A program made the translations under genes and the position numbers. A model generated the notes under the pieces. That model worked only from the letters and a program-made list of their open reading frames with translations. It had not been told where the DNA came from and ran no database searches. Below, piece after piece: positions 3,718-56,642 of a stretch of 64,000 nt of DNA. The stretch lies in sequence record OL956808.1; one strand, 5' to 3'. The DNA is from Escherichia phage vB_EcoM-S1P5QW. Positions within the stretch are counted from its first letter, which is position 1. Each line of letters begins with the position of its first letter.

Positions 3718-4191
3718 ATGTTATTGACTGGCAAATTATATAAAGAAGAAAAACAGAAATTTTATGATGCACAAAACGGTAAATGCTTAATTTGCCAACG
3801 AGAACTAAATCCTGATGTTCAAGCTAATCACCTCGACCATGACCATGAATTAAATGGACCAAAAGCAGGAAAGGTACGTGGATTGCTTTGTAATCTCTGC
3901 AATGCCGCAGAAGGTCAAATGAAGCACAAATTTAATCGTTCTGGCTTAAAGGGACAAGGTGTTGATTATCTTGAATGGTTAGAAAATTTACTTACTTATT
4001 TAAAATCCGATTACACCCAAAATAATATTCACCCTAACTTTGTTGGAGATAAAACAAAGGAATTTTCTCGTTTAGGAAAAGAGGAAATGATGGCTGAGAT
4101 GCTTCAAAGAGGATTTGAATATAATGAATCTGACACCAAAACACAGTTAATAGCTTCATTTAAGAAGCAGCTTAGAAAGAGTTTAAAATGA
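3718..4191 (+). CDS. 49: endonuclease VII (Holliday junction resolvase)
   Basis: 157 aa, sequence recognised as T4 gp49; ATGA overlap with nrdD. Confidence 0.9.
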   Translation: MLLTGKLYKEEKQKFYDAQNGKCLICQRELNPDVQANHLDHDHELNGPKAGKVRGLLCNLCNAAEGQMKHKFNRSGLKGQGVDYLEWLENLLTYLKSDYTQNNIHPNFVGDKTKEFSRLGKEEMMAEMLQRGFEYNESDTKTQLIASFKKQLRKSLK

Positions 4192-29701: not shown

Positions 29702-30730
29702 ATGTCATCAATACCTTGGATTGATAATGAGTTTGCATACCGTGCATTAGCTCATTTACCTAAATTCACACAAGTAAATAATAGTTCAACTTTTAAATTA
29801 CGGTTTAGATGTCCTGTTTGTGGAGATTCAAAAACCGACCAGAATAAAGCTCGTGGATGGTATTATGGTGATAATAATGAAGGAAATATTCATTGTTATA
29901 ACTGTAATTATCATGCACCAATCGGAATATATTTAAAGGAGTTTGAACCTGATTTATATCGTGAGTATATCTTTGAAATAAGAAAAGAAAAAGGTAAAAG
30001 TCGTCCAATAGAAAAACCTAAAGAACTTCCTAAGCAACCTGAGAAGAAAATAATTAAATCTCTTCCGTCATGTGTTAGATTAGATAAACTGGCGGAAGAC
30101 CATCCAATTATAAAATATGTAAAAGCTCGTTGTATTCCAAAGGATAAATGGAAATATCTTTGGTTTACAACCGAATGGCCTAAATTAGTTAATAGCATAG
30201 CACCGGGAACATACAAAAAGGAAATTTCTGAGCCTCGTCTTGTTATTCCAATTTATAATGCTAATGGAAAAGCTGAGTCTTTTCAAGGACGTGCATTAAA
30301 GAAAGATGCTCCTCAAAAATATATCACCATTAAAGCTTATCCTGAGGCAACAAAAATTTACGGTGTTGAACGAGTTAAAGATGGTGATGTATATGTTCTA
30401 GAAGGACCTATAGATTCACTTTTTATTGAAAATGGTATAGCTATTACGGGTGGTCAATTAGACCTAGAAGTTGTTCCATTTAAAGATAGACGAGTGTGGG
30501 TTTTAGATAATGAACCTCGTCACCCTGACACTATCAAACGAATGACTAAATTAGTTGATGCAGGAGAAAGGGTTATGTTTTGGGATAAATCTCCCTGGAA
30601 ATCAAAAGATGTCAATGATATGATTAGAAAGGAAGGTGCAACCCCTGAACAAATTATGGAATATATGAAAAATAATATTGCCCAGGGGTTGATGGCTAAA
30701 ATGCGGCTATCTAAATATGCTAAGATTTAA
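29702..30730 (+). CDS. 61: DNA primase gp61
   Basis: 342 aa, zinc ribbon CPVCGD...CYNC, TOPRIM-like core. Confidence 0.9.
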   Translation: MSSIPWIDNEFAYRALAHLPKFTQVNNSSTFKLRFRCPVCGDSKTDQNKARGWYYGDNNEGNIHCYNCNYHAPIGIYLKEFEPDLYREYIFEIRKEKGKSRPIEKPKELPKQPEKKIIKSLPSCVRLDKLAEDHPIIKYVKARCIPKDKWKYLWFTTEWPKLVNSIAPGTYKKEISEPRLVIPIYNANGKAESFQGRALKKDAPQKYITIKAYPEATKIYGVERVKDGDVYVLEGPIDSLFIENGIAITGGQLDLEVVPFKDRRVWVLDNEPRHPDTIKRMTKLVDAGERVMFWDKSPWKSKDVNDMIRKEGATPEQIMEYMKNNIAQGLMAKMRLSKYAKI

Positions 30731-30927
30731 ATCAACCCAACTAAAGCAAATGCTAAATCTACAAATGTATCAAGAGTAACTACTGGAATATTAATACCAT
30801 GTGCAATTGCAATTGGTGATAAAATAAAGTTCCAGAGTAAAATTCCTACCATAGCAGAAATAGTAAAAGCTATACGTTTTTTATTACCTTTTATGGCATT
30901 AACAAGTGCCATTAATTTTTGTACCAT
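30727..30927 (-). CDS. small two-TM membrane protein encoded antisense to the early genes
   Basis: 66 aa; AAGGAGG SD 5 nt before ATG on the - strand; does not overlap any + gene. Confidence 0.5.
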   Translation of the reverse strand: MVQKLMALVNAIKGNKKRIAFTISAMVGILLWNFILSPIAIAHGINIPVVTLDTFVDLAFALVGLI

Positions 30928-30940
30928 ATGTCCTCCTTAT

Positions 30941-30964
30941 TGCTTTATATATTTATTGTATAAT
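30941..30964 (+). promoter_or_regulatory. candidate MotA-dependent middle promoter upstream of gene 56
   Basis: TGCTTTA followed about 12 bp later by TATAAT. Confidence 0.45.
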
Positions 30965-30998
30965 TAATCTACTAACCCATGAATTGAAAGGAAAAATA

Positions 30999-31517
30999 AT
31001 GGCTTACTTTAATGAATGTGCTCATTTGATCGAAGGTGTTGATAAAGCAAATCGTGCATATGCTGAGAATATTATGCACAATATTGACCCACTGCAGGTT
31101 ATGCTTGACATGCAGCGGCATTTACAGATTCGTTTGGCTAATGATAAACCAGAAACAAATCGTCATCCTGATTCACTTGAAACTGCAGGAGAAGTTCTTG
31201 CTTGGTTGCGAAACCAAGACGATTATATCGCAGATGAAACTCGCGAGCTATATACTTCTCTTGGTGGTATGAGTAATGGTGAAAAAGAAGCTTCTGCTGT
31301 ATGGAAACCTTGGAAGAAACGTTATTCTGAAATGCAATCCAAGAAAATTCAAGATTTATCTCCTGAAGATCAGCTTGAAATTAAATTTGAACTGATTGAC
31401 CAATTTCACTTTTTCATGAATAAATTTATTGCTCTTGGAATGTCAGCTGAAGAAATCTTTAAACTTTATTACCTGAAAAATGCTGAAAACTTCGCTCGTC
31501 AAGACCGAGGTTATTAA
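30999..31517 (+). CDS. 56: dCTP pyrophosphatase gp56
   Basis: 172 aa from ATG (MAYFNECAHL), recognised as T4 gp56; track start over-extended. Confidence 0.85.
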   Translation: MAYFNECAHLIEGVDKANRAYAENIMHNIDPLQVMLDMQRHLQIRLANDKPETNRHPDSLETAGEVLAWLRNQDDYIADETRELYTSLGGMSNGEKEASAVWKPWKKRYSEMQSKKIQDLSPEDQLEIKFELIDQFHFFMNKFIALGMSAEEIFKLYYLKNAENFARQDRGY

Positions 31518-31717: not shown

Positions 31718-31923
31718 AATTTGATTTCTACGCGTGGCAAAAAGCCGGGAGACCGGCTACTCGAGCATTTGGTTCTGATGGATATAATATTAGAGCCCAT
31801 TGGAAATTTAATGCTCCAGAAGATTATTCTCCGGTAATTATTAACGGCGATGTTGTTATATTAACTAAAATCGGGTATTTTAACGTTCCGCGAGAATTTA
31901 TTATAAATAATCATGTAATTTAA
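31714..31923 (+). CDS. hypothetical protein
   Basis: 69-aa ORF, ATGA overlap. Confidence 0.4.
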   Translation: MKFDFYAWQKAGRPATRAFGSDGYNIRAHWKFNAPEDYSPVIINGDVVILTKIGYFNVPREFIINNHVI

Positions 31924-31939: not shown

Positions 31940-32197
31940 ATGGCTAGTACTCGCGGTTATGTTAATATTAAAACATTTGACCAAGCAGTTGATGGTGGTA
32001 CAATTCAGGGTAAAGAAATTTCTGTAGCTTTCCCTCTTTATTCTGATGTTCACAAAATTTCTGGGGCTCATTATCAGACATTTCCTTCAGAAAAAGCAGC
32101 ATATTCAACAGTATATGAAGAAAATCAGCGTGCTGATTGGATTACTGCAAATGAAGGTCTTTGGACTGTTACGCCAACTCCAGGTATTGGTGATTAA
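31940..32197 (+). CDS. soc: small outer capsid protein Soc
   Basis: 85 aa, recognised as T4 Soc; followed by hairpin terminator. Confidence 0.8.
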   Translation: MASTRGYVNIKTFDQAVDGGTIQGKEISVAFPLYSDVHKISGAHYQTFPSEKAAYSTVYEENQRADWITANEGLWTVTPTPGIGD

Positions 32198-55985: not shown

Positions 55986-56642
55986 TTATTTAGCCCTTCC
56001 TAATATTCTGGCCGCCTGAGCACATATTGATTCAAGGCGGTCATTACTTATATGATCATTTCTATACCAGTACATGGTTATCGTTCCAGCATAGATATTA
56101 TCCAAATTAAAATATGGACAACTGTACATGTAGTTTATTTCGGGAGTAGGCTTTTTAGTTGGTAAAAAAGCAAATTTTGAGTCAGAATAATAATGACGTC
56201 CATTTAAATGAACTGTATATTCATCCATAGTTTTATCAACAGGATATCCTCCAAGTGATTTTTCAGTTATTGTTGAAGGTAATCTTCCTTCGTATGCTAT
56301 AATATCAACAAAATAGTTTAAGTTTTTAGGGCGGAAAGAATACACCGCACTAAAGTCTGCCTCAGATGATATATGAACTATCTGGAGTTGTTCCAGGGCG
56401 ACAGATTCAAAGCGTGCATTTCTTTCCTTTTCAATAATTTCACTGTATGTTTCATACTTTGATTGCTTATAGTACTCAAAGAAACTATCTCCCCTATACC
56501 AAACAATCGCCATCATAAATAAAAGAATTACGACAGCTACCCGGGAAGCAAGAACTTTCCCGGTAGCGTTATCTTTGAACAAGCGATCTAGAACACCAAA
56601 TAGAATATCAGAGGGCGAAAATGATATTCTAGGTGCTGCCAT
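55986..56642 (-). CDS. t: holin T
   Basis: 218 aa, N-terminal TM segment, recognised as T4 holin; late promoter and AAGGAGG SD upstream. Confidence 0.9.
   Translation of the reverse strand: MAAPRISFSPSDILFGVLDRLFKDNATGKVLASRVAVVILLFMMAIVWYRGDSFFEYYKQSKYETYSEIIEKERNARFESVALEQLQIVHISSEADFSAVYSFRPKNLNYFVDIIAYEGRLPSTITEKSLGGYPVDKTMDEYTVHLNGRHYYSDSKFAFLPTKKPTPEINYMYSCPYFNLDNIYAGTITMYWYRNDHISNDRLESICAQAARILGRAK

Follow-up and report, generated by a model that had tools for sequence, protein, structure and literature searches.

The antisense open reading frame (ORF) between the primase gene 61 and the dCTPase gene 56 of Escherichia phage vB_EcoM-S1P5QW (OL956808.1) is the already annotated T-even gene dam.1, found here in its commonest genomic arrangement; the locus is an ordinary one. 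A sequence-only reading of the window (the whole stretch of 64,000 nucleotides analysed here) had presented this ORF as standing in the place of dam at an unusual junction. T4 itself, however, carried the same ORF beside dam (3739..3939 of the T4 locus sequence), with 63 of 66 residues identical, on the same strand and with the same overlap of stop codons, and this was the very observation named beforehand as making the locus ordinary. Taken as a whole, the data are probably best explained by a real T-even gene with a variant late promoter, a small inner-membrane protein as its product, and an interleaving with the gene 56 promoter that arose as a by-product.

The 61-56 junction and its antisense ORF

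The window belonged to a Tequatrovirus, i.e. a coliphage of the T4 type. A 701-base segment around the ORF matched 505 phage records, 293 of which spanned the whole junction (at least 80 % coverage), the best match being UFV-AREG1 (99.4 %). A 24-kb stretch of the window displayed 95-97 % identity to GiZh, JLBYU24 and others. The junction was composed of the following features.

29702..30730, + strand: gene 61, DNA primase, 342 aa (ORF list; phrog_47 DNA primase, E 2e-106; annotated as gene 61 in UFV-AREG1 and T4)
30727..30927, - strand: dam.1, conserved hypothetical small membrane protein, 66 aa (ATG ORF; phrog_2024; annotation of relatives; dN/dS; orthologues; hydropathy; AlphaFold)
30893..30922, + strand (that of genes 61 and 56): weak hairpin resembling a terminator, ATGGCATT-AACA-AGTGCCAT, with a T run behind it, inside dam.1 codons 2-12, of doubtful significance
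30932..30938, - strand: Shine-Dalgarno (SD) sequence AAGGAGG of dam.1, 4 nt before the ATG
30938..30964, + strand: MotA-dependent middle promoter of gene 56, predicted from T4 homology, with Mot box TATTGCTTTA (30938-30947), 11-nt spacer and -10 TATAAT (30959-30964)
30957..30950, - strand: candidate T4-type late promoter AATAAATA with A at -13, a conserved motif 22 nt upstream of the dam.1 ATG
30999..31517, + strand: gene 56, dCTPase/dUTPase, 172 aa (phrog_173 nucleoside triphosphate pyrophosphohydrolase, E 2.4e-44; gene 56 in relatives)

Much of the layout proposed by the sequence-only reading was recovered. A 66-aa ORF with an ATG start was present on the - strand between the two genes, and the gap of about 270 bp announced there measured 268 bp from the gene 61 stop to the gene 56 ATG (30999). 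The SD AAGGAGG was also encountered, although at 4 nt from the ATG instead of five; all dam.1 orthologues retained such a sequence in the form of AGGAGG, AAGGAG or AGGGGG. Gene 61 and dam.1 were convergent and their stop codons overlapped by 4 bp, sharing TTAA (the dam.1 stop being TAA). The early-block gaps were screened for - strand ORFs that spanned 35 aa or more and were mostly clear of + strand ORFs, and this ORF was the only one preceded by an SD, as expected from the proposal that it was the sole convincing - strand gene of the early region. Likewise, Dam.1 was the only opposite-strand CDS from asiA to gene 4 in the annotation of GiZh.

The gene is annotated as dam.1 in T4T (HM137666; T4Tp032, ADJ39749.1) and in RB3 (RB3_032), and gp103 of GiZh bears the note 'Dam.1', being equated there with RB32ORF030w and RB69ORF029w. 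The T4 reference records NC_000866 and AF158101 displayed no dam.1 annotation; in NC_000866, 309 bp separate gene 61 from dam and hold the antisense ORF. Residues 2-66 of the product aligned with positions 1-65 of the 65-position profile phrog_2024 (function unknown) with an E-value of 1.4e-31. Copies from other Tequatrovirus members were 95-100 % identical and of equal length, with the same strand, neighbours and 4-bp stop overlap with gene 61. The window copy differed from that of T4 in no substantial way except that it directly adjoined the gene 56 promoter, because dam was missing. No paper naming dam.1 was found, literature searches on ribosome profiling, unannotated ORFs, start sites and RNA-seq of T4 brought up nothing relevant to it, and the HIDEN-SEQ and CRISPRi-ART papers did not mention an antisense ORF at the 61-56 junction.

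The absence of dam from the locus, which had been proposed by comparison with the T4 map, was confirmed. The best tblastn match of T4 Dam in the 64-kb window had an E-value of 0.022 over 47 aa, against 3e-176 in the control with the T4 locus. GiZh, which shares 96.8 % identity with 62.4 kb of the window and has an identical junction arrangement, served as complete-genome proxy, and no Dam homologue was detected in it by tblastn with T4 Dam (best E 1.0). T4-type Dam (at least 90 % identity) was encountered in 182 phage records and the antisense ORF (at least 80 % identity) in 502, while the dam-less junction was found in 293; the dam-less state is therefore the commoner one among Tequatroviruses. 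The locus is commonly polymorphic for dam, whose absence is no peculiarity of this genome.

Between dam.1 and gene 56 there was nothing in the window and in most Tequatroviruses, dam in T4 and T2, and dam plus a 186-aa ORF in FJ1. It is hardly credible that a novel antisense membrane gene replaced dam and turned the locus into an unusual departure from T4. Dam is indeed missing from the window, and the ORF does fill the 61-56 gap. Nevertheless, T4, T4T, T2, PD112 and FJ1 all carried the ORF together with dam, T4 alone being a sufficient refutation; because these dam+ phages carry both, the ORF does not replace dam. The prevalence of the dam-less junction over T4-type Dam records argues in the same direction, as does the dam-less layout shared by Mosig-, Gapriver-, Dhaka- and Jiaodaviruses.

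The space flanking dam.1 appeared as an indel hot spot: it was empty in some genomes and occupied in others by dam alone, dam plus an ORF, an additional paralogue or, in RZ, a homing endonuclease. Visual comparison led to the rejection of a simple direct-repeat deletion of dam, because dam-less and dam+ alleles differed through the promoter spacer too.

Conservation and predicted product of dam.1

According to tblastn, dam.1 was encoded in 692 phage records, of which 502 displayed at least 80 % identity and the other 190 displayed 42-57 %. Orthologues and paralogues at 18-57 % identity occupied the corresponding site in Mosig-, Gapriver-, Dhaka- and Jiaodavirus. A 65-aa orthologue separated genes 61 and 56 in Mosigvirus G2469. 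Gaprivervirus VR26 and P479 each possessed a tandem pair of paralogues (65 and 66 aa) at this site, and Dhakavirus IME341 a 66-aa ORF of the second-paralogue type. A 63-aa relative was found at the locus of Klebsiella phage Roth34, which was taken as a Jiaodavirus (its record is devoid of taxonomy). The gene adjoined the primase gene in every inspected locus except that of RZ, where a homing endonuclease intervened; apart from RZ, it was always convergent with gene 61 and divergent from gene 56 or dam. A search of all ORFs of the complete GiZh genome with the family profile (hmmsearch) yielded no second copy.

The gene was absent from the 61-56 junction of Krischvirus JSE, Slopekvirus phiKp_26 and Karamvirus CW742, which indicates that dam.1 is dispensable for T4-like phages in general. 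Karamvirus CW742 displayed a + strand ORF at this locus.

Fourteen Tequatrovirus alleles displayed nine, two and 15 variable sites at the first, second and third codon positions, respectively, with pairwise dN/dS of 0.10-0.17 and conservative replacements (I/V, A/T, N/S). Between genera, dS was saturated while dN amounted to 0.2-0.5. Five residues were invariant across all types of dam.1 (W32, N33, P38, G44 and G64) and P48 was nearly so, the resulting W-N-x4-P-x5-G motif being specific to this family.

A profile search of 5.8 billion proteins retrieved 115 clusters, the named ones originating from Enterobacterales T4-like phages or bacterial records. Nearly all cluster names were hypothetical, 'Holin' and 'DNA packaging ATPase' occurring as single labels. 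Among 1.84 billion representatives, phmmer retrieved family members and three long proteins with many matched stretches; these long matches were rejected as spurious, since both inspected ones were internally repetitive. A scan of IMG/VR added only five further loci, all near-identical. Judged from these patterns of conservation, dam.1 is a genuine, vertically inherited protein gene of the T-even coliphage group.

Hydropathy and charge divided the product into three parts. Residues 1-18 were amphipathic and ended in the basic cluster KGNKKR, residues ~16-42 formed a strongly hydrophobic helix (Kyte-Doolittle average ~1.9), and residues 45-66 were hydrophobic with conserved acidic residues D52 and D56, this last part not being hydrophobic in type-B paralogues. 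AlphaFold (16 sequences, mean pLDDT 81) predicted helices at 2-12, 16-42 and 52-63, residues 45-66 being modelled as a loop followed by a 12-residue helix. The sequence-only reading had proposed two transmembrane (TM) spans: the one at ~16-42 was robust, whereas the second (45-66) remained uncertain, owing to its acidic residues and its structure of loop and short helix. A single TM helix with the N-terminus inside is thus well supported by these predictions; the basic amphipathic N-terminus would probably be cytoplasmic and the short hydrophobic tail that follows the TM helix periplasmic or re-entrant. Polar residues in TM helices can be a sign of helix-helix association, and such an association is suggested here by the invariant Trp-Asn pair in the middle of the membrane, followed by Pro and Gly after one to three turns of the helix.

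Relatives outside the family were found neither in Pfam, NCBIfam and PADLOC nor by a PDB profile search, and Foldseek against BFVD returned family members only. Class II holins, pinholins and Imm and RI of T4 are small inner-membrane proteins of phages, each with one or two TM helices. The predicted dam.1 product resembles them in size, membrane location and the possible helix-helix association motif, but it displays no sequence or profile similarity to them and no charged C-terminal tail.

Probable promoters of dam.1 and gene 56

The motif NATAAATA was found 12-22 nt upstream of the ATG in every version of dam.1 (six contexts, five genera), between flanks that were non-alignable from one sequence class to another. 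Three forms were encountered upstream of dam.1.

AATAAATA: the window and other dam-less Tequatroviruses, Mosigvirus, Dhakavirus
GATAAATA: T4 and other dam+ Tequatroviruses
CATAAATA: Gaprivervirus and Roth34

The T4 late promoter is TATAAATA; 32 of the 50 T4 sites listed are perfect and nine display A at -13, which makes it the commonest variant (PMC2988020), while the remaining ones mostly carry another single deviation (PMC2988020, Geiduschek and Kassavetis). These promoters possess an AT-rich segment just downstream and do not need a -35 element, and T4 late transcripts may be of either polarity (PMC2988020). The motif at 30957..30950 fitted TATAAATA with a single deviation, at -13, and the sequence downstream of it, TATAAAGCAATA, was AT-rich by the criterion of PMC2988020. 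No sigma-70-like promoter was found upstream of dam.1 on the - strand.

The core ATAAATA occurred 12 times in the window, about three-fold below the 37.9 +/- 6.5 sites expected from shuffles, and this depletion makes a chance occurrence upstream of dam.1 unlikely. In the complete GiZh genome, 52 NATAAATA sites were counted (33 T, 13 A, 3 C and 3 G), 25 of which were followed by an SD and an ATG; the total is close to the 50 published T4 sites, nine of which are A(-13) variants (PMC2988020). The layout displayed by dam.1, with the motif, a short AT-rich leader, an SD and an ATG, recurred at three other genes of the window.

31903, + strand: late-promoter motif of soc
56660, - strand: late-promoter motif of t
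61119, - strand: late-promoter motif of gene 36

The closest parallel is soc, in T4 also a small gene of the early block with a late-promoter motif, a short AT-rich leader, a strong SD and an ATG. In the window, TATAAATA stood at 31902-31909 and soc at 31940, and a putative late promoter, P(L) 15.32, is marked before soc in X01416. The two genes differ in that soc lies on the early-gene strand behind a perfect TATAAATA and encodes a capsid protein, whereas dam.1 lies on the opposite strand behind an A(-13) variant and encodes a predicted membrane protein. As a late-promoter variant precedes every version of dam.1, it is most likely a late gene, with a predicted transcript start near 30944 (- strand). 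RNA polymerase carrying gp55 would transcribe it late from the NATAAATA variant (here AATAAATA, 30957..30950), producing a leader of ~17 nt with a strong SD.

Middle promoters have a Mot box, (a/t)(a/t)TGCTT(t/c)A, followed some 12 bp further on by a sigma-70 -10 element, and lack a -35 element. The gene 56 element, TATTGCTTTA-11 nt-TATAAT, conformed to this description. It had been put forward by the sequence-only reading as TGCTTTA-N12-TATAAT; both boxes were recovered on the + strand (30941-30947 and 30959-30964), but the spacer was of 11 nt. The assignment to the MotA type was sustained by alignment with the mot-box and -10 of T4 P(M)16.53 annotated in X01416, and the element also aligned with the conserved gene 56 leader in four genera. 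This homology points to MotA/AsiA-dependent transcription of gene 56. According to the T4 records, genes 56, segF and 59 are transcribed on the RNA that also serves as the oriA primer.

The proposal of a divergent, overlapping arrangement proved correct, since the late motif (30950-30957) was located within the 11-nt spacer of the gene 56 middle promoter, with predicted divergent start points ~27 bp apart in the window. In Mosig-, Gapriver- and Dhakavirus it abutted or overlapped the Mot box. T4 P(M)16.53, on the other hand, follows the dam stop codon, whereas the window promoter lies 2 nt past the dam.1 SD; unlike the window spacer, the T4 spacer, CATACTCAAATGA, does not carry a late motif on its other strand. 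The dam-less allele displayed the motif exactly there, which suggests that it was kept for dam.1.

That the two promoters are possibly mutually interfering, as the sequence-only reading put it, appears reasonable for dam-less phages, given that two polymerase complexes could not occupy interleaved late and middle promoters together. The interleaving would nevertheless be a by-product of compactness and no conserved requirement, because the corresponding T4 promoters are ~900 bp apart with dam between them. No - strand terminator was predicted for 3 kb downstream of dam.1, so that a late dam.1 transcript would run antisense into gene 61. It is conceivable, if improbable, that the locus acts as a temporal switch, in which late gp55-polymerase would occlude the gene 56 promoter and the oriA primer while the transcript, antisense to gene 61, would encode a new family of membrane regulators with the W-N-x4-P-x5-G motif.

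Alternative readings and possible role

The ORF might be untranslated and conserved for a DNA or RNA function, e.g. as a late antisense RNA against read-through from gene 61 to gene 56, or as an element of the gene 61 mRNA, either a terminator or part of its 3'-UTR. The + strand terminator-like hairpin inside the ORF would fit such a function, as would the missing - strand terminator, any late RNA being antisense to gene 61. Substitutions were nonetheless protein-like (third-position excess, conservative replacements, low dN/dS), and the frame, the SD and the W-N...P...G motif outlasted both synonymous saturation and gene duplication. The hairpin was encountered in Tequatrovirus only and was missing from Mosigvirus and Gaprivervirus, for which reason it was rejected as a conserved terminator, and Rfam gave no credible match. 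An untranslated ORF is accordingly considered very unlikely. Somewhat less remote, though still rather unlikely, is a real protein gene that is not driven by NATAAATA and depends on a distant late promoter reading through antisense to gene 56 and soc, or on a promoter of unrecognised type or timing. In all lineages the dam.1 motif began with A, G or C instead of the consensus T, so that the site may be weak, as variant promoters can be (PMC2988020), or some other constraint may have preserved the motif. Against this, a motif that is depleted genome-wide recurred at a set distance from the ATG although the surrounding sequences were non-alignable, and it did so even at its new position in dam-less Tequatroviruses.

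With dam.1 retained as a protein gene most likely transcribed from this motif, its product might be thought a lysis protein of the holin or pinholin kind. Its small size, its predicted place in the membrane and its probably late expression would agree with this, and an orthologue from OE5505 is named 'Holin' in UniProt. That name, however, is a lone submitter or automatic one against more than 100 'hypothetical' entries, and neither a Pfam holin family (at E up to 10) nor an NCBIfam match was found. A hydrophilic, charged C-terminal tail follows the last TM helix of holins, whereas the dam.1 product ends in the hydrophobic ...DLAFALVGLI and displays no basic residue after residue 18. Moreover, the window already possesses t (218 aa, 55986..56642) with a perfect TATAAATA, the GiZh equivalent of which is labelled holin. 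A holin is therefore an unlikely identity for dam.1. As a tentative best guess, dam.1 may be a non-essential late modulator of the cell envelope, acting for instance on superinfection, lysis inhibition or the timing of lysis; no homologue bearing on such a role was returned by Pfam, NCBIfam, PADLOC, PDB or fold searches.

The preferred reading of dam.1 as a late membrane-protein gene can be summarised as follows. The gene would have been inherited in Tequatro-, Mosig-, Gapriver-, Dhaka- and Jiaodavirus, always placed tail-to-tail with gene 61 on one side and head-to-head with the promoter of gene 56 on the other, and its late transcript would be translated into a 66-aa inner-membrane protein with one long TM helix bearing W-N...P...G. 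In dam-less phages, a mutation of the dam.1 promoter would also alter the spacer of the gene 56 promoter, and genetic tests must allow for that; the change of AATAAATA to AATCAATA would affect only this spacer on the gene 56 side.

The T4 references NC_000866 and AF158101 thus omit a conserved gene under purifying selection, which annotation-based studies would miss; CRISPRi-ART libraries, for instance, were designed against annotated CDSs. The practical value of the finding is small. What is new here is that a variant late-promoter motif is conserved upstream of dam.1 and lies interleaved with the gene 56 promoter, a modest but testable addition. Among the hundreds of T4 genes of unknown function, dam.1 is distinctive in being the only opposite-strand gene of the early block, probably late and predicted to encode a membrane protein.

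Annotation of dam.1 and its distant relatives

The small antisense gene dam.1 was annotated in T4T, RB3, GiZh and most newer genomes. Both reference records for T4 (NC_000866 and AF158101) leave it unannotated; its position in the former is:

L002 3739-3939 (NC_000866 17738-17938), + strand: dam.1 in T4

Enterobacter phage CIP9 encodes a 63-aa relative displaying 31% identity. The metagenomic protein P0035 (61 aa) is a dam.1 variant with V, I or F in place of many residues, and seems to stem from a hypermutated (C-to-T) or damaged read, not from an allele that occurs naturally. The gap between genes 61 and 56 of Karamvirus CW742 contains a different ORF, and no dam.1-like ORF was found on the strand opposite to it:

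L022 2523-2807, + strand: 94-aa ORF labelled 'nucleoside triphosphate pyrophosphohydrolase'

Surroundings of gene 56

Two features of the window flank gene 56:

30893-30922, + strand (that of genes 61 and 56): terminator-like hairpin with T run, within the first dam.1 codons
31517-31923, + strand: pair of small ORFs (66 aa and 69 aa) separating gene 56 from soc

The hairpin, restricted to Tequatroviruses, is located directly upstream of the gene 56 promoter, and a terminator was annotated at its site in one GenBank record (SA21RB). The two ORFs lie where segF, encoding a homing endonuclease, is found in T4; PHROG labels them 'virion structural protein' and 'head protein', which looks like annotation carry-over.

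GATC and late-promoter motifs

Avoidance of GATC has been described previously for enterobacterial phages. In the window (1-64000) and in the complete GiZh genome, both dam-less, GATC was about three-fold below second-order Markov expectation, with 70 sites versus 202 expected and 206 versus 562, respectively. ATAAATA, the core of the T4-type late-promoter motif NATAAATA, was also strongly depleted on both strands of the window (12 sites against 37.9 +/- 6.5 in shuffles); three of the sites lie ahead of soc, t and gene 36. The complete motif occurred 52 times in the GiZh genome, which is near the published count of 50 late promoters in T4 (PMC2988020).

The space adjoining dam.1

The loci described here are:

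L011 1495-1901: Gaprivervirus VR26
L012 1495-1901: Gaprivervirus P479
L023 2526-2726: Dhakavirus
L014 1495-2621: phage RZ
L018 850-1410: FJ1, additional hypothetical ORF of 186 aa, flanked by dam and dam.1

Gapriverviruses harbor a tandem pair of dam.1 paralogues sharing ~20% identity with each other. Dhakavirus retained the second type alone, and the second copy of TH40 looks disrupted. Phage RZ displays, between dam.1 and gene 61, a homing endonuclease gene at the site occupied by the second paralogue in VR26 and P479. The 186-aa ORF, seen directly in FJ1, is found in some dam-carrying Tequatroviruses, and the FJ1 upstream sequence is common to IMG/VR contig 2974787500 (L008, upstream of 2501). 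The space adjoining dam.1 is a recurrent insertion site.
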